Shown one piece after another: positions 19,918 through 48,165 of a DNA stretch of 64,000 bases (position 1 is its first letter; each line of letters begins with the position of its first letter). The DNA lies in the NCBI GenBank assembly GCA_021817825.1, contig JAKAFS010000002.1, forward strand, positions 6,812 to 70,811, in the 5' to 3' direction. The notes under the pieces were generated by a model that ran no database searches, was not told where the DNA came from, and worked only from the letters and a program-made list of their open reading frames with translations. The position numbers were made by a program, and so were the translations under genes. This stretch comes from Deltaproteobacteria bacterium (GTDB lineage Bacteria > Desulfobacterota > Syntrophia > Syntrophales > UBA5619).

Positions 19918-19993
19918 TGGCTCCCCAGCGCGGACTCGAACCACGGACCCGATGGTTAACAGCCATCTGCTCTACCGACTGAGCTACTGGGGA
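19918..19993 (-). tRNA. tRNA-Asn (anticodon GTT), CCA encoded
   Basis: Folded by hand: acceptor TCCCCAG/CTGGGGA, D-arm GCTC/GAGC, anticodon arm GATGG-CTGTTAA-CCATC, T-arm CGTGG-TTCGAGT-CCGCG, discriminator G, then CCA. Total length 76 nt. Confidence 0.95.
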
Positions 19994-38060: not shown

Positions 38061-38834
38061 CTACTTTGCCAGCCGCCGGATTTCATTCAGGACCTGTACC
38101 GATTTGAGCTCTTTTCCGAGGATGTGGCGGATGAAGCGGGCCAGAAGCCGGCGGCTCTCGTCGGCCGATTGCCCCGACCAGACCAGCCGTCCCAGCCGGT
38201 CGGCTTCGAGTTCCCGGCTCATCAGCAGCGTCCGGATCGTTCCCAGGGATACCGGAAGGGCCTCCGGCGTTTCGGGACGGCAGGCGGCACAGTGCAGTCC
38301 TCCGTCGGCGGCGTGGAACCGGTAGGCGTTCCCGTTTTCGATGGGTTCCCGGCAGGCCAGGCAGCGGTCCAGAACCGGGTCGTAGCCGGCGAGCTTCAAG
38401 AGGCGCATCTCGAAGAAGCGCAAGAGGGATTCCGGGGCGGGTCCTGCCTCGATGAGCCCCAGGAAGCTTTCGAGGAGCGTGAACAGCGCCGCGTTCTGCT
38501 TGTCTTCGGGCAGGAACTGATCGGTCAGGTCGATGAGGTAGGAAGCCATCAGGGTCCTTTCCAGATCGGCGCGGATCCGGGGGTAGTGGGAAACCACCTC
38601 GGCCCCCTCGATCAGGGCCAGACTGTCCGGATTCCGGCGGGAAAAGAGGATCTCCAGTCGGCAGAAGGGTTCCAGGGCGTTGGCGAACCGCTTTTTGCTG
38701 CGGCGCGCCCCCTTGGCGATGCCCCGGAGCTTCCCGAATTCGGGCGTCGAGAAGGTGACGATCCGGTCCGATTCCCCGTAATCGAAGAGGCGCAGGACGA
38801 TCGCTTCCGTCCGCTGGGTTGGCCTGGCGTTCAT
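38061..38834 (-). CDS. recO: DNA repair protein RecO
   Basis: N-terminal OB fold (EAIVLRLFDYGESDRIVTFSTPEFGKLRGIAKGARRS) and a Zn-finger (CLAC...CAAC). It starts 10 nt after the pyrC stop. Confidence 0.9.
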   Translation of the reverse strand: MNARPTQRTEAIVLRLFDYGESDRIVTFSTPEFGKLRGIAKGARRSKKRFANALEPFCRLEILFSRRNPDSLALIEGAEVVSHYPRIRADLERTLMASYLIDLTDQFLPEDKQNAALFTLLESFLGLIEAGPAPESLLRFFEMRLLKLAGYDPVLDRCLACREPIENGNAYRFHAADGGLHCAACRPETPEALPVSLGTIRTLLMSRELEADRLGRLVWSGQSADESRRLLARFIRHILGKELKSVQVLNEIRRLAK

Positions 38835-38844
38835 GAGGTCTGCA

Positions 38845-40131
38845 TCAGCAATCGCGGTACCGGATCACCCCTCCGACGATGGTCAGGACGGCCTTGCCCT
38901 TCATCGGCCAGCCCTGAAAAGGGGTGTTCTTCCCGCGGGAGCGCAGGCCGGCGCGATCGACGGTCCATTCTTTTTCGGGATCGATGACGGCGACATCGGC
39001 ATCGGCGCCGTCGGCCAGGGTCCCCTTGGCGATCCGGAGGATCTGGGCGGGGCGGACGGTCAGGGCGGCGATCAAGGCCGAAAGGGTCAGGACGCCGTCG
39101 GCGACGAGGCGCAGCGAAAGGGCGAGTGACGTTTCGAGTCCCGTCAGGCCGCTGGCCGCATAATCGAACTCGACCTCCTTGTCGGTTCGGGCGTGGGGCG
39201 CATGGTCGCTGGCGATCGCATCGAGGGTCCCGTCGCGCAGTCCCTCGCGGATGGCGGCGAGGTCCTCGGCGCCGCGGAGGGGAGGATAGACCTTGGCAAA
39301 GGTGTCGTAGCCGCGGACGGCTTCGTCCGTGAGGGTGAAGTAATGGGGGGCCGTTTCGGCGGTGACGCGGACCCCCCGGGCCTTGGCCTCCCGGATCAGA
39401 CGGACCGCCCCGGCGGTGCTCACGTGGGCGATGTGGATCGGGGCCCCGGTGTATTCGGAAAGCAGCAGGTCGCGGGCGACCATGACATCCTCGGCAAGGG
39501 CGGGGATTCCCGTCAGCCCGAGCTCCGTGGACACGGCGCCTTCGTGCATGACCCCGCCGGCGGAGAGGTGCCGGTCTTCGCAGTGGACGATCACCGGCAG
39601 TTCGAGAGAGGCGGCATATTCCAGCGCCCTGCGCAGCAAAGCGCCGTTCATGACGGACTTGCCGTCGTCGGAGAATCCGCTGGCGCCCGCCTCCTTGAGA
39701 TCCCAGAATTCGCAAAGCGAGGCGCCTTCCGACTTCAGGGTGATCGCCGCGATGGGGTAGACGTTGGCGATGCCGCATTCCGCGGCCTTGCGGCGGATGA
39801 ATTCGGTGACCGACCGGCTGTCGTTCACGGGGTCCGTGTTGGGCATGCAGGCAATGGAGGTGAACCCGCCCGCCACGGCGGCCTCGCAGCCGGACGCGAT
39901 GGTTTCCTTGTACTCGAATCCGGGCTCCCGCAGATGGGTGTGGATGTCGATGAGACCGGGGACGACGAACCTGCCGCGGCAGTCGATGACCTCGGCCGCG
40001 GAGGCGCATTCCTCTTTCGCCAGATCCTTTCCGGTCCGGACGATTCGGCCGTTCTCGATGAGCAGGTCCGCCTTGCCGTCCGTTTTTCCGGCCGGGTCCA
40101 CGACCCGGCCGCCTTTGAGTAAGAGTTTCAT
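38845..40131 (-). CDS. pyrC: dihydroorotase (multifunctional-complex type)
   Basis: [13 protein letters not shown]..., metal ligands [15 protein letters not shown] and ASDHAPH. The ATG at 40131 overlaps the pyrB stop (ATGA). The ORF-track 734-aa form is an artefactual extension through pyrB in another frame. Confidence 0.95.
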
Positions 40132-41054
40132 GACTCGTTGCCTCCTGTCAGCAGATAGAGAAGGGCCATCCGGACGGCGACGCCGTTGGTGACCTGGTCG
40201 AGAATGACCGAGCGCGGTCCGTCGGCCATGTCGGGCGAGATCTCGACGCCCCGGTTCATGGGGCCCGGATGCATGATGATGCAGTCCGGACGGGCAAGCT
40301 CGATGTTCCGCGCGTTGAGCGAGAAGCGTTGGGCATATTCGCGCAGCGAAGGGAAGATGTTGTGCTTTTCCCTTTCGGTCTGAATGCGGAGCATCATGAC
40401 GACGTCGGCATCCCCGATGGCGGCGTCGATGCGGGAGTAGGCCGCGACCCCCAGCCTTTCGATGTCCCGGGGGAGCATGGTGGCCGGCCCCGCCACCGAG
40501 ACGGTCGCCCCCATCTTGGTCAAAGCGAAGATATTCGAGCGGGCGACGCGGCTGTGGGCGATATCGCCGACGATCGCCACCTTGAGTCCCTCGATCCGCC
40601 CTTTCTTGGCGCGGATCGTCATCAGGTCCAGGAGGGCCTGGGTGGGGTGCTCGTGGGCCCCGTCGCCGGCGTTGATGATCGGCTGGCGCAGCCTCCCGGC
40701 CAGGAGGTGCGGCGCGCCGGCGGCGCTGTGCCGGATGACGATGAGGTCGGGATTCATCGCCTCCAGGTTCTTGGCCGTGTCGATCAGCGTCTCTCCCTTG
40801 ACGACGCTGCTCGTCGAGGCGGCAATGTTGATCGTATCGGCGCTCAGCCGTTTCCCGGCGATTTCGAAGGAGGTCCGGGTGCGAGTGCTGGCCTCGTAGA
40901 AGAGATTGATGACCGTCTTGCCGCGGAGGGTGGGGACCTTCTTGATCTCCCGGGTCGACACTTCGATGAAGGATTCGGCCGTATCGAGGATCAGATTGAT
41001 CTCGTCCCCGTCGAGTTCCTGAATCCCGAGGAGGTCTTTTCTGCTCCATTTCAT
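40128..41054 (-). CDS. pyrB: aspartate carbamoyltransferase catalytic subunit
   Basis: [21 protein letters not shown] and HPGPMNRG. The ATG at 41054 overlaps the pyrR stop (ATGA). Confidence 0.96.
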
Positions 41055-41596
41055 GGTTGCACCTCGTTTTCGACGACCACTTCGTCCTTGCCGCACTTCT
41101 CTAAGAGCTGAACGCTGACCGCTTCCCAGAGGGAAGAGGGGAGGTTCTTGCCGACGAAATCGGCGCGGATGGGAAGTTCCCGGTGGCCCCGGTCGATGAG
41201 GACCGCCAGCTGAATCAGTTTCGGCCTCCCGAAATCGATCAGGGCGTCCATGGCGGCCCGGATCGTCCGACCGGTAAACAGGACATCGTCCACCAGGACG
41301 ACCTTTTTTCCGTCCAGGGAAAAGGGGATGTCCGTCTTGCCCGGCCGCGGTTTGCGATGGGAGCCGGAAAGATCGTCGCGGTACAGGGTGATGTCGAGGA
41401 GTCCCACCGGAACGCGCTTCCCTTCGATATCGGAGATCTTCTGTTGCAGACGTTCGGAGAGGAAGACGCCTCCCGTCTGTATCCCGACGAGGACCAGCTC
41501 CTCCACGCCTTTGTTTTTTTCCAGGATCTCATAGGCGATGCGGGTCAGTGACCGGTCCATCCCTTCCGCATCCATCACCACCTTTTTGTGCTCCAT
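41051..41596 (-). CDS. pyrR: bifunctional pyr operon attenuation protein / uracil phosphoribosyltransferase PyrR
   Basis: PRPP-binding [17 protein letters not shown] and the PyrR-typical [12 protein letters not shown] at 41596. Confidence 0.95.
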
Positions 41597-41617
41597 GGCT
41601 AACCTCTTTCGGGGATT

Positions 41618-41650
41618 AAAAAAAAAGCCTTCCCCCGGCAACGGGAAGGC
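41618..41650 (-). terminator. intrinsic terminator (attenuator) inside the pyrR leader
   Basis: Minus strand reads GCCTTCCC-GTTGCCGG-GGGAAGGC followed by TTTTTTTTT, ending about 20 nt before the pyrR ATG. It lies downstream of the PyrR-box hairpin. Confidence 0.7.
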
Positions 41651-41694
41651 CCGACAATAACATGATCTGAAGACGGCTGTTCTTTCACTGGCAT

Positions 41695-41729
41695 GTCCCT
41701 TTTTAATCTCTCGGATTCAATTAAAGGGG
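41695..41729 (-). promoter_or_regulatory. PyrR-binding RNA hairpin (PyrR box)
   Basis: Minus strand reads CCCCUUUAAU-UGAAUCCGAGAG-AUUAAAAAGGGAC. The 9-bp stem has one bulged A. The loop sequence AAUCCGAGAGAUU resembles the conserved ARUCCAGAGAGGYU PyrR recognition motif. Confidence 0.6.
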
Positions 41730-41758
41730 TTCAACGGTCTGTCGCTTACGGTTCACTC

Positions 41759-41785
41759 TCTATAACAAGTGCCGCGCGGTGTCAA
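41759..41785 (-). promoter_or_regulatory. sigma70-like promoter (extended -10) of the pyrR-pyrB-pyrC(-recO) operon
   Basis: Minus strand reads TTGACA (41785-41780), a 15-nt spacer, then TGtTATAGA (-10 at 41764-41759). Confidence 0.4.
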
Positions 41786-41812
41786 GTCGGAAGGCGGGCT
41801 GCAAAAAAACTT

Positions 41813-41840
41813 TTGCAATCTCCCTGATTGGTGTTATAGG
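41813..41840 (+). promoter_or_regulatory. sigma70-like promoter (extended -10) of the MgtE-sensor/NRAMP pair
   Basis: TTGCAA (41813-41818), a 16-nt spacer, then TGtTATAGG (-10 at 41835-41840). The leader is about 20-25 nt with SD GGGAGG. Confidence 0.4.
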
Positions 41841-41866
41841 CACATATCCCCGGGAGGCGTCGAAGC

Positions 41867-43129
41867 ATGGCCGTGAACCAAGAACCTCAAGTTTTCCTGT
41901 TTTTGAGTGAACTGCTGGGGCGGAAAATCGTCGATTCCGAAGGTCGCCCCGTGGGCCGGGTCCTCGATCTGGCCGGCAATCTCGGAGAAACCTATCCGCC
42001 CGTGACGGAGGTGCTGCTGCGCTCCGCCGCGAGCGGGAAGATCGCACTCCTGCCCTGGCGGCATCTTTCCATGGTCGGCGATGCGCTGGTCGCTCAGTCC
42101 CTACAGCCGGAGGATTTGCGGGAACCCGCGCTCCGTCCCGGTGAACTCTTTCTCAAAGAGACCCTGCTGGACAAGCAGGTGGTGGATACCGACGGGGCGA
42201 AGATCCGGCGGGTCAACGATCTACAGTTTCTCAAGACGCTGAAGATCCTCTACCTGGTGCACGTGGATGTGGGATTTCACGGTCTTTTGCGGCGGGTGGG
42301 GCTGGTGCGGCCGACGGGCTTTGTCCTCCGGACGCTGTTCGATTACCAGATGACCGATCAGTTGATTTCCTGGAAGTTCGTCCAGCCCGTGTCCTCGCCC
42401 GATCTGCTCCGCCTGACCGTCGCCCAGAACCGGCTTTCCCATATGCACCCGGCGGATCTGGCGGACATCATCGAGGAGCTGGATATCCACAACCGCTCCG
42501 CCGTCTTCCGCTCCCTCGACGTGGAGACCGCTGCCGAGACGCTGGAAGAGACGGATCCGAAGATCCAGGTGAGTCTGATCGAAGGGCTCGAGCTGGCCAA
42601 TGCCTCCGACATCATCGAGGAGATGTCCCTGCCCGAGGCGGCGGATCTCCTGGGGGATCTGCCCAAGGACAAGGCGGAAGGGATCCTCAAGGAGATGGAG
42701 CGGGACGTGGCCGAGGACGTCAAGGAGCTGCTCGCCCACCCGGAAGAGGTGGCCGGGGGGCTCATGACCACCTCGGTTCTCAGCTTTGCGCCCGCGAAGA
42801 CGGTGCAGGAGGCGATGGCGACGATCCGGCGCGAGGCCGAAGACGCGGATCTGATCTATTACCTCTATGTAGTGGATGCCGAGGAGCGGCTGCTCGGCGT
42901 GCTGAGTCTGCGCGATCTGATCGTGGCCGCGCCGGAAACGACGCTGGCGGAGTTAATGGACACCCGCATCGTGGCGGTGAATATCGAGGAAAAGAAGAAC
43001 CGGATCGCCGAAGATTTTGCCAAGTACGGCATACTGGCGATGCCGGTCGTCGATGACGATAACCGGTTCAAGGGGGTCATTCTGTTCAAGAACCTCCTGG
43101 AACTGGTGGCGCCCCAGTTGGGCAGGTAG
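41867..43129 (+). CDS. soluble PRC-barrel + MgtE_N + CBS-pair protein (MgtE cytosolic sensor module without the membrane pore)
   Basis: Two PRC-barrel-like segments (LLGRKIVDSEGRPVGRVLDL..., LLDKQVVDTDGAKIRRVNDL...). The MgtE_N acidic helical domain follows (HPADLADIIEELD...LPEAADLLGDLPKDKAEGILKEM), then a CBS pair (...LYVVDAEERLLGVLSLRDL..., ...AMPVVDDDNRFKGVI). The ORF ends without any TM segment. Confidence 0.85.
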   Translation: MAVNQEPQVFLFLSELLGRKIVDSEGRPVGRVLDLAGNLGETYPPVTEVLLRSAASGKIALLPWRHLSMVGDALVAQSLQPEDLREPALRPGELFLKETLLDKQVVDTDGAKIRRVNDLQFLKTLKILYLVHVDVGFHGLLRRVGLVRPTGFVLRTLFDYQMTDQLISWKFVQPVSSPDLLRLTVAQNRLSHMHPADLADIIEELDIHNRSAVFRSLDVETAAETLEETDPKIQVSLIEGLELANASDIIEEMSLPEAADLLGDLPKDKAEGILKEMERDVAEDVKELLAHPEEVAGGLMTTSVLSFAPAKTVQEAMATIRREAEDADLIYYLYVVDAEERLLGVLSLRDLIVAAPETTLAELMDTRIVAVNIEEKKNRIAEDFAKYGILAMPVVDDDNRFKGVILFKNLLELVAPQLGR

Positions 43130-43160
43130 AAGGAAGCGTTGAGGGAGGGGGCGCCGATCC

Positions 43161-44441
43161 ATGGCTGAGAATCTGACTGACGGCTTCCGCGGGCTCTGGG
43201 GAGCGCTTGCCGGCAAGCGCTACTGGCGATCGCTGGCGATCTTCTTTGCCCTCATCGGACCGGGAATCATCACCTCCAACGTGGACAACGACGCCGGCGG
43301 CATCACCACCTATTCGCTCGCCGGCTCGGAATACGGCCTTTCCCTGCTCTGGACGCTCATTCCGATTACCGGGGCGCTCATCATCATCCAGGAGATGTGC
43401 GCCCGAATGGGGGTCGTTTCCGGCAAGGGGCTCTCCGATTTGATCCGCGAGCGGTTCGGGGCAAAGATCACCTTCTACCTGATGATCCTGCTGTTTCTGA
43501 CCAATCTGGGCAACACGATCTCCGAATTTGCCGGCGTCGCCGCCAGCATGGAGCTCTTCGGCGTCAGCAAGTACCTCTCCGTTCCGGTCAGCGCCGTGAT
43601 CGTCTGGTGGCTCGTGGTCAAGGGCACCTACAAATCGGTGGAGAAGGTCTTTCTCTTCGCCTGCGTCTTTTATCTCTCGTACATCGTCTCGGGGTTTATG
43701 GGAAAACCGGACTGGCAGGCCATCGGCACGGCGGTCATGACGCCGACGATCCGGATGGATGCAGGGTGGCTGGCCATGTCGGTGGGCATCATCGGGACGA
43801 CGATCGCCCCCTGGATGCAGTTCTATCTCCAGTCGTCGGTGGTGGACAAGGGGCTCAAGGCGGAAGATTACCCCTACACCCGGATGGATGTGATCATCGG
43901 TTCGGTGACGGTCAACGTGGTCGCCTTTTTCATCATCCTGCTCTGCGCCGTGACCCTCTTCCAAAACGGCATCCGGGTCGAGAGCGCCAAGGACGCCGCC
44001 CAGGCCCTGGCCCCGCTGGCGGGAGAATACGCCTCCTGGCTGTTCGCCTTCGGGCTCCTGAACGCCTCGCTCTTTGCCGCCTCGATCCTGCCGATCTCCA
44101 CGGCCTATACGATCTGCGAGGCCTTCGGCTGGGAGTCGAGCCTGAACCGAAAGTTTCTGGAGGCCCCCCAGTTCTACGGCCTCTACTCGCTGATGGTTTT
44201 TTTGGGAGCCGGGATCATCCTGCTGCCCGGGACGCCGCTGATCACCATCATGTACTATTCCCAGGTCATCAACGGAGCGGTTTTGCCCGTCGTCCTGATC
44301 TTCATGCTGCTGCTCATCAACGACAAGCGCATCATGGGCGCCTACACGAACGGTCCGGCGCTGAACATCGCCGCCTGGGCGACGGTGGCGATCCTGATCG
44401 TCCTGTCGGTCACCATGCTCGGTTTTGCCCTCTTTGGGTAA
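43161..44441 (+). CDS. NRAMP/SLC11-family transporter with non-canonical metal-site motifs (NRMT-like, candidate Mg2+ transporter)
   Basis: Full-length NRAMP-like multi-pass protein. TM1 reads GPGIITSNVDNDAGGITT (DAGG instead of DPGN). TM6 reads GTTIAPWMQFYLQSS (APW instead of MPH). SD GGAGGGGG lies upstream and the gene starts 31 nt after the preceding gene. Confidence 0.88.
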   Translation: MAENLTDGFRGLWGALAGKRYWRSLAIFFALIGPGIITSNVDNDAGGITTYSLAGSEYGLSLLWTLIPITGALIIIQEMCARMGVVSGKGLSDLIRERFGAKITFYLMILLFLTNLGNTISEFAGVAASMELFGVSKYLSVPVSAVIVWWLVVKGTYKSVEKVFLFACVFYLSYIVSGFMGKPDWQAIGTAVMTPTIRMDAGWLAMSVGIIGTTIAPWMQFYLQSSVVDKGLKAEDYPYTRMDVIIGSVTVNVVAFFIILLCAVTLFQNGIRVESAKDAAQALAPLAGEYASWLFAFGLLNASLFAASILPISTAYTICEAFGWESSLNRKFLEAPQFYGLYSLMVFLGAGIILLPGTPLITIMYYSQVINGAVLPVVLIFMLLLINDKRIMGAYTNGPALNIAAWATVAILIVLSVTMLGFALFG

Positions 44442-45056
44442 TCAATGCAGGATCGTTCCGATCCGATTCCAGCGCACCCAGTGGTCCTCGCTGTTCCAGG
44501 ACCAATAGATGACCAGGGCCTTTCCCAGGATGTCCTCTTGTTTGACGAATCCCCAGAAGCGGCTGTCGTAGCTTTCATCCCGGTTGTCCCCCATGACGAA
44601 AATCGATCCTGTCGGGACCGTCACGGGGCCGAAATTGTCCCGGGGCTGCACGGCCCCGGGGATGACGAGGCGGTCCGAATGGACGCCGTGGGTGTCGTCC
44701 TTCCAGGGCTGGCCGTTCAGGAAGATCTGCTTGTCCCGGACTTCGACGGTGTCGCCGGGCAGCCCGACCAGCCGCTTGATGAAATCCTTGGAACGGTCTT
44801 CGGGATAGATGAACACCAGGATGTCTCCCCGTTTCGGCGTCCCGATGGGGATCAGGGTCGTCCGGAGGAAGGGGAGCTTGACCCCGTAATTGAACTTGCT
44901 CACCAGGATGTGGTCGCCGATCTGGAGCGTCGGTTTCATCGATCCCGAAGGGATTTTGTAGGCCTGGATGACGAAGGTGCGAATGAAAAAAGCGATCACG
45001 ACGGCGATGACGATCGCTTCGATGTATTCCTGCACTTTGGATTTTGGTTTGCTCAT
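44442..45056 (-). CDS. lepB: signal peptidase I
   Basis: IPSGSMKPTL (catalytic Ser), RGDILVF, KRLVGLPGD (catalytic Lys) and FVMGDNRDESYDSR. Confidence 0.93.
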   Translation of the reverse strand: MSKPKSKVQEYIEAIVIAVVIAFFIRTFVIQAYKIPSGSMKPTLQIGDHILVSKFNYGVKLPFLRTTLIPIGTPKRGDILVFIYPEDRSKDFIKRLVGLPGDTVEVRDKQIFLNGQPWKDDTHGVHSDRLVIPGAVQPRDNFGPVTVPTGSIFVMGDNRDESYDSRFWGFVKQEDILGKALVIYWSWNSEDHWVRWNRIGTILH

Positions 45057-45066
45057 AGAACTTTCC

Positions 45067-45579
45067 TTAAGAATAGGCGCTGGTTAACGTGATGATGACC
45101 ATGATCAGGGAAAAAAATCCCTTGACGCAGATCCCCGCCGTGCGGCCCAGAATGACTCCCCAGGCCTCGCGGAGGTTCGGTTTGAGAGCGTTGCGCTGGA
45201 GCAGCTCCGCCACGAGCATGCCCGCCAGACCCCCTAAAAAGGCGCCGACGATCAGTCCCAGGCCCAGGAGGAAGGGGGTCAAGACAAAGGCGCCCACGCT
45301 CCCTCCCAGGAGGAAGGAAAGAAAGGCGCTGCGGGAAAGCCCGAACTTCAGGGCCACCGACATGCCGACGGCGAAATCGACGATCTCCGCAAGCACCGTC
45401 AGGACCAGCAGGGTGAGGAGCACCTTGAAGCCGATCCGCTCGAACCCCGTCAGCGCTGCGTAGAGGAACGCATCGCTGAGGATGATGATCGTCCCCGGCA
45501 GGCCGAAGAGGATGGAGAAGGCGCCGAACAGGAGCGTCAGGATGAAAAGGGTCAGTCCGCCGATCTCCAATGGGGTCAA
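45067..45579 (-). CDS. DUF456-like integral membrane protein
   Basis: Hydrophobic 170-aa product with a GLPGTIIIL motif. There is no in-frame ATG downstream of the secF stop, so the likely start is the TTG at 45579, 1 nt after that stop. The start is uncertain. Confidence 0.55.
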   Translation of the reverse strand: MTPLEIGGLTLFILTLLFGAFSILFGLPGTIIILSDAFLYAALTGFERIGFKVLLTLLVLTVLAEIVDFAVGMSVALKFGLSRSAFLSFLLGGSVGAFVLTPFLLGLGLIVGAFLGGLAGMLVAELLQRNALKPNLREAWGVILGRTAGICVKGFFSLIMVIITLTSAYS

Positions 45580-45580
45580 A

Positions 45581-46492
45581 TTAGGCCTTCCTCTTGAGCC
45601 CCGTGGGCTTGATCTTTTCGAAGAGCAGCACGATCGGACTGGCGATAAAAACCGTCGAGTAGACGCCGGCGACGGTGCCCACCAAGAGCGCAAAGGTGAA
45701 GTCATGGATGACGGCGCCGCCGAAGAAGAACAGGATGAGCAGCACCATAAAAACCGTCAGGGAGGTCAGAATGGTCCGGCTGAGCGTCTGGTTCACGCTC
45801 ATGTTGATGACGTCCATGAGCGGCATCTTGATGTTCTTCTTCGAATTTTCCCGGATCCGGTCGAAGATGACGATCGTGTCGTTGATCGAAAATCCGATGA
45901 TGGTCAACAGGGCCGCCACGATGTTGAGGTCGAACTCCTTGTTGAAGAGGGACAGGAAGGTGATCGTGACCAGGACGTCATGGATCAGCGAAACGATGCC
46001 GCCCAGGGCGTAGCGGAATTCGAACCGCACCCCCACATAGATCAGGATGCCGAGCCAGGAAAAGACGATGGCCAGGAGGGCCTTCCGGGTCAGGTCCTTG
46101 CCGACCTTGGGACCCACGATTTCAATCCGCCGGATCTCGTAGACCCCTTTGCCGAAGGCGGTGGTAAGGGCCTCGTCGATCCGTGCCGTTAAATTTTTGG
46201 GATCGGCGCCCGATTCCGCCGTCCGGACGATCACCTCGTTGGGGCCGAACTGCTGGATGATGCTCCCCTCGAAGCCTGCCGTCTTGAAGGCGGCGCGGAT
46301 CTTGTCGGCGTTGGGTTCGGCCTGGAACTTGACCTGGATCAGGGAGCCTCCCGCAAAATCGATGCCGTAGTTGGGTCCCCCATGCCAGATCAACGAGCCG
46401 ATGCCGATGAGGATCACGGCGATCGACAGGATCGTGGCGGACTTCATCAGTCTGACGAAATTGAAATGCGTTTCCGCTTTAATGATTTCCAT
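45581..46492 (-). CDS. secF: protein translocase subunit SecF
   Basis: HFNFVRLMK..., GIDFAGG and SINDTIVIFDRIREN. SD AGGAGAA precedes the ATG at 46492. Confidence 0.95.
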   Translation of the reverse strand: MEIIKAETHFNFVRLMKSATILSIAVILIGIGSLIWHGGPNYGIDFAGGSLIQVKFQAEPNADKIRAAFKTAGFEGSIIQQFGPNEVIVRTAESGADPKNLTARIDEALTTAFGKGVYEIRRIEIVGPKVGKDLTRKALLAIVFSWLGILIYVGVRFEFRYALGGIVSLIHDVLVTITFLSLFNKEFDLNIVAALLTIIGFSINDTIVIFDRIRENSKKNIKMPLMDVINMSVNQTLSRTILTSLTVFMVLLILFFFGGAVIHDFTFALLVGTVAGVYSTVFIASPIVLLFEKIKPTGLKRKA

Positions 46493-46563
46493 TACATTCT
46501 CCTAAAAACAAAAAGCGCCCGATGGCTCGTCCGGGGACGAGCCGCCGGCCCGCATCCGTCCCC

Positions 46564-48165
46564 TTAGATGCCGATCTTCTGGACCTTCCGGTTCCAAATC
46601 AGGTAGTCAAAGATGATCCGCGTGACGAAGACGGCGGTGAACATGCTGACCACGATACCGATGGTCAATGTCACGGCAAACCCTTTCACCGGGCCGGTCC
46701 CGAAACCGAAGAGGAACAGGGCCGCCACGAGGGTCGTCACGTTGGAGTCGAAGATCGTCAGGAAGGCCTTCGCGTAGCCGGCCTCGACGGCGGCGCGCAG
46801 CGTTTTCCCCAGGCGCATCTCCTCGCGGATCCGCTCGTTGATCAGGACGTTGGCATCGACGGCCATGCCGATGGTGAGCACGATGCCCGCGATGCCGGGA
46901 AGGGTCAGGGTCGCCTTGAAGGCGGCCATGATGCCCAAAAGCAGCAGCATGTTCATCGCCAACGCCACATCGGCAATCATGCCCGTCGTCCGGTAGTAGA
47001 AGACCATGAACAGGAGGATCAGGAGGCCCGCGATAATGCTGGCCCAGGTTCCCTTGTCGATGGAATCCTGACCGAGGGAGGGACCGACGGTCCGCTCCTC
47101 AAGGATATTGACCGGGGCGGGCAGGGCGCCGGCCCTAAGAACGATGGCCAGGTCGGTCGCCTCCTCCATGGTGAAGGAGCCGGTGATCTGGGCCTGGCCT
47201 CCGGAGATCCGTTCCTGAATGACCGGGGCCGAATGGACGACGCCGTCCAGGATGATCGCGAGACGCTTCTTGACGTTTTCACCGGTGATCCGGTCGAAAT
47301 CCTTGGCCCCCTGGGCGTTGAACTTGATGGAGACGTTCGGTTCGCCGAAGCGATCCGAGATCTGGACCTTGGCACTCTCCAGCCCTTCGCCGGTCAGGAG
47401 GGACTTGTTTTTCAGGAGGATCGGAATCTGGGACCGGCGACCCGAATCCCGGTCGATGCGCGATTCATAGGCGACCACATCGCCGTCGGGGATGTTCCCC
47501 TTGAGGGCGTCATCGAGGCTGTGCTCGTCGTCGACGAGCTTGAATTCCAGCATCGCGGTCCGGCCGATCAGGCTTTTGGCCCGCGTCGTATCCTTGACGC
47601 CCGGCAACTGGACGATGATCCGGTCGATGCCCTGGGGGATGATCTCCGGCTCCGAGATGCCGAACTGATCGACGCGGTTGCGGATGGTCTCCAGGCTCTG
47701 CTCGACGGCCATCTTCTTGATGTCGGCGGCCCGCTTGTCCTTGATCTTCAGGGAGACCAGCGCCTTGCTGTCCGCTGTTTCGGACGTGGCGATCTCCAGA
47801 TCGGGATATTCGTTTTTCAGCAGTTTGTCGAAGGCGTCGCGCGCGGCGGCGTCGGGGAACTGGAACGCCGCGCTCCGGTCCTTGGTCGGCTCCTGAAGGC
47901 GGAAGCGAATCCGCTTGTCCATGAGGTTTTCCTTCAGATCGTTGATGGACCTCTCCAGGGTGCTCTCCACCGCCTTGGCGGTTTCCACCTCCAGAACGAG
48001 GTGCATGCCTCCCTGGAGGTCCAGTCCCAGGTGGATCTTGTCCGTCGGGAGGTATTTCTTCCACGCGTCGGGAAGATCGGGGGTCAGGGTGGGCGCCAGA
48101 TAGACGAACGCAGCCAGGCAAAGAACGATCGTGACGGCGGTCCTGATGCGGATGCTATTGAACAT
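46564..48165 (-). CDS. secD: protein translocase subunit SecD
   Basis: LGLDLQGG, a periplasmic P1 domain, SLGQDSI and AVDANVLINERIREE. Confidence 0.95.
   Translation of the reverse strand: MFNSIRIRTAVTIVLCLAAFVYLAPTLTPDLPDAWKKYLPTDKIHLGLDLQGGMHLVLEVETAKAVESTLERSINDLKENLMDKRIRFRLQEPTKDRSAAFQFPDAAARDAFDKLLKNEYPDLEIATSETADSKALVSLKIKDKRAADIKKMAVEQSLETIRNRVDQFGISEPEIIPQGIDRIIVQLPGVKDTTRAKSLIGRTAMLEFKLVDDEHSLDDALKGNIPDGDVVAYESRIDRDSGRRSQIPILLKNKSLLTGEGLESAKVQISDRFGEPNVSIKFNAQGAKDFDRITGENVKKRLAIILDGVVHSAPVIQERISGGQAQITGSFTMEEATDLAIVLRAGALPAPVNILEERTVGPSLGQDSIDKGTWASIIAGLLILLFMVFYYRTTGMIADVALAMNMLLLLGIMAAFKATLTLPGIAGIVLTIGMAVDANVLINERIREEMRLGKTLRAAVEAGYAKAFLTIFDSNVTTLVAALFLFGFGTGPVKGFAVTLTIGIVVSMFTAVFVTRIIFDYLIWNRKVQKIGI

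Follow-up and report, generated by a model that had tools for sequence, protein, structure and literature searches.

Can a magnesium sensor that has lost its pore regulate a transporter of an unrelated fold that is encoded next to it? The question is raised by two adjacent genes in a stretch of 64,000 nucleotides (in the following, the window) from contig JAKAFS010000002.1 of an uncultured Syntrophales-like deltaproteobacterium. The upstream gene (41867-43129, plus strand, 420 amino acids, ATG...TAG) encodes a soluble MgtE-like protein, for brevity termed the sensor or the partner. The downstream gene (43161-44441, plus strand, 426 amino acids, ATG...TAA) encodes a transporter of the NRMT type (NRAMP-related Mg2+/Mn2+ transporter). 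An interpretation of the DNA made without database searches, here called the sequence-only reading, had placed both open reading frames (ORFs) at these positions, 31 nucleotides (nt) apart and with a Shine-Dalgarno-like (SD-like) run in the spacer, and this layout is correct. We find that the locus is an ordinary member of a widespread type of mgtE-like/nrmT operon, which was published in 2014 together with the same regulatory hypothesis (Shin et al. 2014, PLoS Genet 10:e1004429, PMC4072509). To that description the present analysis adds a conserved tandem PRC module with its invariant motifs, homologues in which the same module is fused to a pore, the presence of the partner in the lineage of the structurally characterized EleNRMT, and the loss of Mg4-site aspartates in the window protein.

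A pore-less MgtE homologue next to an NRMT

The transporter matches the Pfam family Nramp over its full length (E-value 1.4e-101). Its best match in the PDB is EleNRMT (7qia, E 5e-117, 394 bits, residues 22-424), whereas the best MntH reaches E 3e-30 and at most 109 bits in the same search; the NCBIfam model for MntH yields 135 bits, far under its cut-off of 430. The ion site can be compared directly. According to PMC8806188, NRMTs carry the signature DxxG / TxxA/T where classical NRAMPs have DxxN / A/CxxM. In the window protein, translation gives D44-A-G-G47 in transmembrane helix 1 (TM1; 43290-43301, plus strand) and T213-T-I-A216-P-W218 in TM6 (43797-43814, plus strand). Both motifs follow the NRMT signature (DxxG and TxxA, respectively) and are the same in EleNRMT, and TM6 has neither the methionine nor the histidine of classical NRAMPs (P-W instead of P-H). 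The sequence GTTIAPWM recurs in 74 of 85 surveyed loci. Clustering of the relatives of the transporter (E ≤ 1e-30) at 50% identity gave 968 clusters; the best 150 matches included 57 full-length cluster representatives, and every one of these had NRMT-type sites. Score gaps and site signatures are thus the basis on which the gene product is assigned to the NRMTs; its substrate is predicted by homology. The sequence-only reading had noted the DAGG and T-I-A-P-W motifs as well as the missing TM6 methionine and had grouped the protein with NRMT rather than MntH, all of which is confirmed. Purified EleNRMT on its own carries Mg2+ and Mn2+, not Ca2+, and does so without proton coupling (Ramanadane et al. 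2022, PMC8806188).

The sensor consists of three parts. A tandem PRC-barrel module that is foreign to canonical MgtE (residues 1-185; 41867-42421, plus strand; Pfam, AlphaFold2 model and Foldseek) is followed by the acidic helical domain MgtE_N (PF03448, residues 193-294; 42443-42748, plus strand; E 4.7e-26, full model 1-102 covered) and by two CBS domains (residues 297-414; 42755-43108, plus strand; E 1.5e-15) that align to residues 133-252 of the Thermus thermophilus channel (TtMgtE). Altogether the protein aligns to TtMgtE residues 24-252 (PDB 2yvy, E 1.6e-34). The NCBIfam mgtE equivalog covers it with model positions 23-251 of 450, at 159.7 bits and a cut-off of 232.75. No match to the MgtE pore domain PF01769 was found in the sensor by Pfam, and plug helix and TM domain are absent: the protein ends at residue 420, only six residues past the second CBS domain. 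Nor can a remnant of the MgtE TM domain follow, since the NRMT gene begins 31 nt past the stop codon. Judged by these matches, the sensor is a homologue of the cytosolic part of MgtE only and not an MgtE channel. We note that many sensors of other phyla carry a short basic C-terminal tail (e.g., P-T-A-W-K-K-R-L-P-R, alignment columns ~470-493) at the point where MgtE would run into its plug helix; the window sensor has no such tail and ends in ...APQLGR.

At the level of sequence the PRC assignment is weak. Pfam reports PRC for residues 11-76 (29.6 bits, cut-off 21.2) and also scores the segment 11-77 at 21.2 bits; a second PRC-like segment is partial and weaker (residues 98-131, 14.2 bits). 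The assignment was confirmed by structure prediction and Foldseek. The AlphaFold2 model of the full-length sensor (mean predicted local distance difference test, pLDDT, 79; predicted template modelling score, pTM, 0.43) comprises a beta region (9-135), a helical bundle (178-290), and two alpha/beta CBS units. For the C-terminal half, the top Foldseek matches are the cytosolic domains of MgtE (8gps, 2yvy, 2oux; E ~1e-17). Residues 1-185, modelled alone (pLDDT 75, pTM 0.69), match best the PRC-barrel proteins CdpB1/CdpB2 of A. fulgidus (8qzo, E 6e-6 to 4e-5, 133-181 columns), followed by MTH1859 and then by the H subunits of photosynthetic reaction centres. The predicted architecture is hence a tandem PRC barrel, an MgtE_N domain and a CBS pair, in agreement with the pore-less PRC, MgtE_N and CBS protein that the sequence-only reading had described. 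With the exception of the sequence-level PRC call, the domain matches of sensor and transporter lie far beyond chance, and we regard the identities of both proteins as virtually certain.

The same pore-less form of the sensor, at a similar length, is found throughout its family. A homologue search in 5.8 billion proteins returned 3315 relatives, the best 120 of which are 64-83% identical to the window protein, have nearly all a length of ~420 amino acids, and contain the same three Pfam families. The PRC module was detected in all 60 complete partners of the genome survey described below; all of them are intact and pore-less. The most conserved stretch of the family (42167-42295, plus strand) comprises LDKQVVDTDGAKIRRVND (residues 101-118) and VDVGFHGLLRR (residues 133-143) and belongs to the second PRC-like unit. 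Residues D102, Q104, D107, R115, N117, D118, D134, G139, R142, and R143 are invariant or conserved to at least 90% (26-61 sensors, 29-77% identity). The top-conserved columns of the family thus fall in the second PRC unit, outside the MgtE-like half. Purifying selection on a surface that is not derived from MgtE fits a protein-protein interface, and the motifs between residues 101 and 143 are our candidate for a conserved docking surface.

Conservation of the gene pair

The two genes are separated by a spacer of 31 nt (43130-43160, plus strand) with a purine-rich SD-like run, GAGGGAGGGGG, ~10 nt before the ATG of the transporter. A hairpin scan of this spacer found no terminator-like structure between the genes. 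Because of the short spacer with its SD-like run and the lack of a terminator, both genes are probably co-transcribed; they are probably also translationally coupled.

The conservation of this arrangement was assessed from both sides. A genome scan anchored on the transporter (14-sequence alignment, one genome per species) provided 80 loci from Syntrophales, Desulfomonilaceae, Acidobacteriota, Nitrospirota, Chloroflexota, Firmicutes, Planctomycetota, Spirochaetota, Bacteroidota, candidate phyla, and two metagenome-assembled genomes (MAGs) of methanogens. The ORFs of these loci were searched with hidden Markov models built from sensor residues 1-185 and 186-420, and 73 loci had enough flanking sequence to be informative. 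The partner is adjacent to the transporter in 64 of the 73 loci: in 61 it lies directly upstream in the same orientation, as a complete partner with both halves in 58 cases, and in 3 more it is adjacent in another arrangement. The converse scan of metagenomes, anchored on the sensor, found an adjacent NRMT in 69 of 74 informative loci, directly downstream in 67, upstream in one, and convergent in one. The spacing between both genes has a median of 20 nt in the metagenome relatives, with an overlap in some, compared to 31 nt in the window. In relatives with 66% and 82% identity an Nramp gene directly follows the sensor, while the genes farther downstream differ, and the pairing persists even where all flanking genes have been exchanged. 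Its range includes Thermodesulfobacteriota, Acidobacteriota, Nitrospirota, Chloroflexota, Firmicutes, Actinomycetota, Planctomycetota, Bacteroidota, and the two methanogen MAGs. Whichever of the two genes is taken as the anchor, the other is thus adjacent in ~90% of the loci, in many bacterial phyla as well as in two archaeal MAGs. A survey of gene neighbourhoods was among the checks suggested by the sequence-only reading, together with the clustering of the transporter and the possibility of a pseudogene as points at which its proposal could fail. The pairing is conserved across phyla, the transporter clusters with NRMTs and the upstream gene is intact, which argues for a real functional pair.

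A few loci deviate in their layout. The sensor is found downstream of the NRMT at L033:5212-6447, and both genes are convergent in loci L029, L040, and L129. In a Spirochaetota MAG (L027:2423-3974) the sensor is split over three frames; this is the sole surveyed locus with frameshifts. Three apparent fusions of sensor and NRMT (P0206, P0222, P0240), in which a single ORF runs from the CBS C-terminus into the NRMT, were considered as Rosetta-stone evidence and dropped. They are probable artefacts of assembly or gene calling, since at least P0222 and P0240 end in a garbled, frameshift-like manner.

Members of the family also occur with a pore. Five sensor-anchored loci have no NRMT, and three of them encode full-length PRC-MgtE channels of 623-656 amino acids (L144:1365-3233, L149:2484-4451, and L154:3001-4941), in which PRC, MgtE_N, and CBS domains are followed by the pore domain PF01769. 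These channels have the PRC-N-CBS module in common with the window sensor (34-35% identity over window residues 10-414) and differ from it in that the pore is fused in cis and no NRMT is found within ~2.3 kb downstream. The module is thus encountered either as part of an MgtE channel or as a separate protein beside an NRMT. On the MgtE pore, its only plausible role is that of the cytosolic gate. A PRC-bearing MgtE architecture is not listed in a 2025 preprint that classifies MgtE (restricted to proteins with the TM domain), nor was it found elsewhere in the literature searched.

A link of the pair to Mg2+ is indicated by riboswitches. In 2 of 32 related loci examined, both from Firmicutes, a strong M-box is located directly upstream of the sensor gene (L030:2459-2629, 132.7 bits, and L080:2300-2458 in Desulfosporosinus acididurans, 103.2 bits), which points to Mg2+ as the ion to which the pair is tied. 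The M-box marks the Mg2+-specific subset of these operons and does not occur in all of them. No M-box was detected in the other 30 loci, including those of Eggerthellaceae.

Regulation in trans and its alternatives

CorA and MgtE channels both bear cytosolic gates that sense Mg2+, whereas NRMT has no cytosolic domain; for this reason a brake that acts in trans is proposed. NRMTs are carriers of the SLC11/LeuT fold whose enlarged DxxG/TxxA site admits largely hydrated Mg2+, and also Mn2+. Since import is not coupled to protons, uptake is electrogenic and not self-limiting, and some brake on the influx is to be expected. The soluble partner would dimerise via its CBS pairs, as MgtE does, and its N domain would close onto the CBS pair at high cytosolic Mg2+, possibly together with an adenine nucleotide. 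The PRC module would dock the partner on the cytoplasmic face of the NRMT, such that influx is throttled in the Mg2+-replete cell. In this manner the partner would provide in trans the kind of negative feedback that is built into CorA and MgtE in cis. Complex formation, ligand, and direction of regulation are what we infer here. That the partner physically regulates the NRMT appears somewhat probable to us; the model as a whole, with the partner as a Mg2+-responsive brake, we consider evenly balanced.

The ligand sites of the sensor were read from an alignment in which the window protein and 60 diverse sensors were set against TtMgtE. Mg-site positions were taken from an NMR (nuclear magnetic resonance) study of MgtE gating (PMC5882242), ATP-site residues from PMC5529423. 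Conservation is mixed. At the positions of the Mg4 ligands D91 and D247, Asp is found in 50 and 49 of the 61 sensors, respectively, and in the window protein the residues are P256 (~42632-42634) and N409 (~43091-43093). D95 is retained almost universally (Asp in 60 of 61 sensors; D260 in the window), and the Mg7 residue E59 is acidic in 48 of 61 sensors (E224 in the window). Of the Mg5 residues, D226 is Asp in only 5 of 61 sensors and is G388 in the window (~43028-43030); D250 is replaced conservatively by E412. Close Syntrophales-type relatives of the window sensor have S256 and N409 in common, while most sensors of other phyla retain Asp at the positions of D91 and D247. The changes at positions 256, 388, and 409 possibly reflect a shift in ligand or affinity that is specific to this subgroup. 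At the ATP site, Y170, R187, and D188 of TtMgtE are retained as Y332, R349, and D350. Given this mixed picture, the sites were not used as proof of Mg2+ sensing: MgtE-style sensing of Mg2+, as read from these residues, has a fair case for the family and a weaker one for the window protein.

Several observations weigh against a Mg2+-responsive brake. With P or S at position 256, N409 in place of the Mg4 aspartates, and D226 changed to Gly, the window sensor and its Syntrophales relatives make the label of a Mg2+ sensor less secure here than for most relatives. The residue F227, which stacks on ATP in TtMgtE, is I389 in the window sensor; in 42 of the 61 sensors this position holds Leu or Ile. 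With both the Mg4 and the ATP-stacking residues replaced, the protein may bind neither Mg2+ nor ATP as MgtE does; for the window sensor we put the chance that Mg2+ is the ligand slightly short of even. In MgtE the gating signal reaches the pore through the plug helix, and the partner has no such helix. The pTM of 0.43 of the full-length model is too low for contacts between the sensor domains to be read from it. Nine of the 73 NRMT loci (~12%) have no partner within 4 kb and nonetheless an identical ion site. NRMTs also work alone, in vivo (PMC4072509) and in liposomes (PMC8806188). When Acp2976 and Acp2977 of A. capsulatum were co-expressed in Mg2+-transport-deficient B. subtilis, no further rescue of Mg2+ transport was obtained, and Acp2977 behaved chiefly as a Mn2+ importer with full rescue of a Mn2+ defect (PMC4072509). 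The null result of co-expression does not contradict the proposed brake: the experiment scored better rescue at low Mg2+, an effect that an inhibitor would hardly produce.

Since the partner resembles only the cytosolic half of MgtE, and full-length PRC-MgtE genes exist, the upstream ORF could be a decaying remnant of mgtE, a possibility the sequence-only reading had itself raised. The probability of such a truncated pseudogene is negligible, and it is effectively refuted by the conserved pore-less form: nearly all of the best 120 homologues end at the same point, the 60 complete survey copies are without frameshifts (which affect L027 only), and strongly conserved columns are distributed along the whole length. 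Neither is it likely that the genes are merely co-transcribed while the partner acts elsewhere, be it on another transporter, the ribosome, or the envelope via its PRC module. PRC barrels do bind varied partners in other systems, such as ribosomal proteins (RimM) or archaeal division proteins (CdpB), one sensor locus (L165) and nine NRMT loci are unpaired, and the null co-expression result (PMC4072509) would also be accounted for. However, a two-way adjacency of ~90% in many phyla with changing flanks is hard to explain without a direct link, and the sole other partner observed is the MgtE pore, i.e., another Mg2+ pathway, to which the module is fused. We therefore rate an action on a separate target as quite improbable.

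An alternative put forward by Shin et al. (PMC4072509) makes the partner an acceptor or chaperone for the metal in the cytoplasm. Its acidic N domain would receive the hydrated ion at its exit from the NRMT, pass it on or buffer it, and in this way promote uptake. The composition of the region is suitable (26% Asp+Glu in residues 186-296), tight operon coupling suits any stoichiometric partner, and the pairing is kept in A. capsulatum, whose transporter favours Mn2+. On the other hand, free cellular Mg2+ is millimolar and needs no chaperone, co-expression gave no better rescue (PMC4072509), homology links the module to a gating domain, a role that it plausibly has on the MgtE pore, and the top-conserved residues lie in the PRC unit and not at acidic sites. 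A chaperone role is therefore very improbable. More weight, although still on the unlikely side, is given to a partner that couples the NRMT to another signal: Mn2+, adenine nucleotides or energy charge, or c-di-AMP as in the CBS domains of OpuCA. The Mg4 and Mg5 residues are not conserved in the subgroup of the window, and Y332, R349, and D350 preserve part of the ATP site of MgtE. CBS pairs are generic nucleotide sensors, and the Foldseek matches include OpuCA (c-di-AMP) and AcuB (AMP/ADP/ATP). The A. capsulatum pair is oriented towards Mn2+, and an M-box was found in only 2 of the 32 loci examined. Yet the frequent Ile or Leu in place of Phe227 does not favour a nucleotide, as the mutation F227A abolishes ATP binding in TtMgtE (PMC5529423); moreover, the aspartates of the N-CBS interface are kept in most family members, and the M-box link of Firmicutes indicates Mg2+.

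Returning to the Mg2+-responsive brake, the pore-fused homologues suggest an extension. PRC module and N-CBS unit may together constitute a portable cytosolic Mg2+ gate that is used on two transport folds, on MgtE in cis and on NRMT in trans. In the latter case, docking on the LeuT-fold carrier would occur via the invariant motifs LDKQ-VD..G.K..RVND and VD.G..G..RR. If this holds, NRMTs, including EleNRMT, would so far have been studied without their physiological regulatory subunit. We propose this generalization tentatively and hold it to be clearly less than evenly probable.

Genomic surroundings and comparison with known systems

The pair is located between two groups of genes on the opposite strand. 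On one side, recO-pyrC-pyrB-pyrR (38061-41641, minus strand) is found, on the other lepB, a DUF456 gene, and secF-secD (44442-48165, minus strand). Relatives with 66-82% identity keep the synteny on the pyrR side; the downstream side differs, with LptF/G genes in one relative and an inserted GGDEF response regulator in another. The promoter of the operon presumably lies at 41642-41866, between the sensor gene and pyrR, which is divergent from it on the minus strand; no match to the sigma-70 consensus was found in this region. The M-box (RF00380) has no match at the gathering threshold in the whole window, nor at E ≤ 10 in 41500-42000. Among RNA families, the upstream region shows a single signal, below threshold: a PyrR-binding leader of pyrR (RF00515, 41618-41731, minus strand; 39.3 bits versus a gathering threshold of 54, E 5.7e-4). 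This match shares sequence with a strong terminator-like hairpin (41625-41652, minus strand; 10 pairs, then TTTTTTT) and probably represents the PyrR attenuator of the pyr operon (pyrR-pyrB-pyrC), divergent from the sensor gene. A single tRNA gene (19921-19993, minus strand) is the sole Rfam match at the gathering threshold in the 64-kb window.

NRMT constitutes a fourth class of bacterial Mg2+ importer. If the proposed brake is real, the partner would have no described precedent as a soluble gating subunit acting in trans on a carrier of the SLC11/LeuT fold, and it would be a clean case of a regulatory module common to unrelated transporter folds. For the window itself the annotation is ordinary, and the remaining interest lies in the function of the partner, a question that dates from 2014 and that the present analysis sharpens but does not answer.

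The sequence-only reading was not aware of an experimental description of a transporter regulated in this way by such a sensor; the pairing and the hypothesis are nonetheless not new. Shin et al. (PMC4072509) reported that a gene for an MgtE cytoplasmic domain adjoins most NrmT genes, named the pairs mgtE-nramp operons, found many of them under M-box control and some without a riboswitch, and proposed feedback regulation by the cytoplasmic protein in trans, or else a chaperone role. In C. acetobutylicum the partner gene is split in two, and clostridial NrmT transporters complemented a Mg2+ defect without the MgtE-like fragment (PMC4072509). The partner is dispensable for transport itself. The proposed two-polypeptide transport module is thus right in that the pair is real and conserved, and overstated in that NRMTs transport without the partner (PMC4072509, PMC8806188). 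Beyond the 2014 study, nothing on the partner was found in the later literature searched: in the Cellier papers on Slc11 and in the structure papers on EleNRMT and NRAT, the term MgtE is absent or the neighbour is not discussed, and the EleNRMT paper (PMC8806188) does not mention a partner gene. Likewise, no paper that combines a PRC barrel with MgtE or Nramp was found in the literature searched.

EleNRMT (PDB 7qia, 7qic, 7qji, 7qjj) is the closest characterized counterpart of the transporter. NDAGGI in TM1 and IGTTIAPWM in TM6 are identical in both proteins, and about half of the aligned residues agree overall; EleNRMT stems from another phylum, and the window member is known by sequence. The closest relatives of EleNRMT (92-93% identity, Eggerthellaceae) are preceded by a 450-amino-acid PRC-MgtE_N-CBS gene that ends 3-4 nt before the transporter (metagenome contigs L166:2645-5416 and L168:2644-5347). 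Transport assays and structures of EleNRMT have thus been published without its native neighbour, and the presence of the partner makes a structural test of the pair practical in this lineage. The classical MntH/DMT1 proteins (D. radiodurans MntH, ScaDMT, EcoDMT) share the SLC11/LeuT fold and the Pfam family with the window transporter; they match it more weakly (3e-30 to 1e-9) and have a DxxN/AxxM site. NRMTs also differ from these classical NRAMPs in not being H+-coupled (PMC8806188).

For the sensor, the closest counterpart is MgtE of T. thermophilus (2yvx, 2zy9, 2yvy), with a homologous N domain and CBS pair. In this channel, N domain and CBS pair together sense Mg2+ and ATP in the cytosol and shut the pore (PMC5882242, PMC5529423). 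Unlike TtMgtE, the window sensor has neither plug helix nor TM pore, carries an extra N-terminal tandem PRC barrel of 185 amino acids, and has P256, G388, N409, and I389 in place of D91, D226, D247, and F227. The pair as a whole agrees with the operons of Shin et al. 2014 (Ca_c0685, Ca_c3329; Acp2976-Acp2977) in that a homologue of the MgtE cytoplasmic part is encoded directly upstream of a gene of the NrmT clade. The partner is described there as MgtE-like only and the tandem PRC barrel is not mentioned (PMC4072509). The window differs from those loci in its host, and it resembles the A. capsulatum locus, unlike the clostridial ones, in having no M-box.

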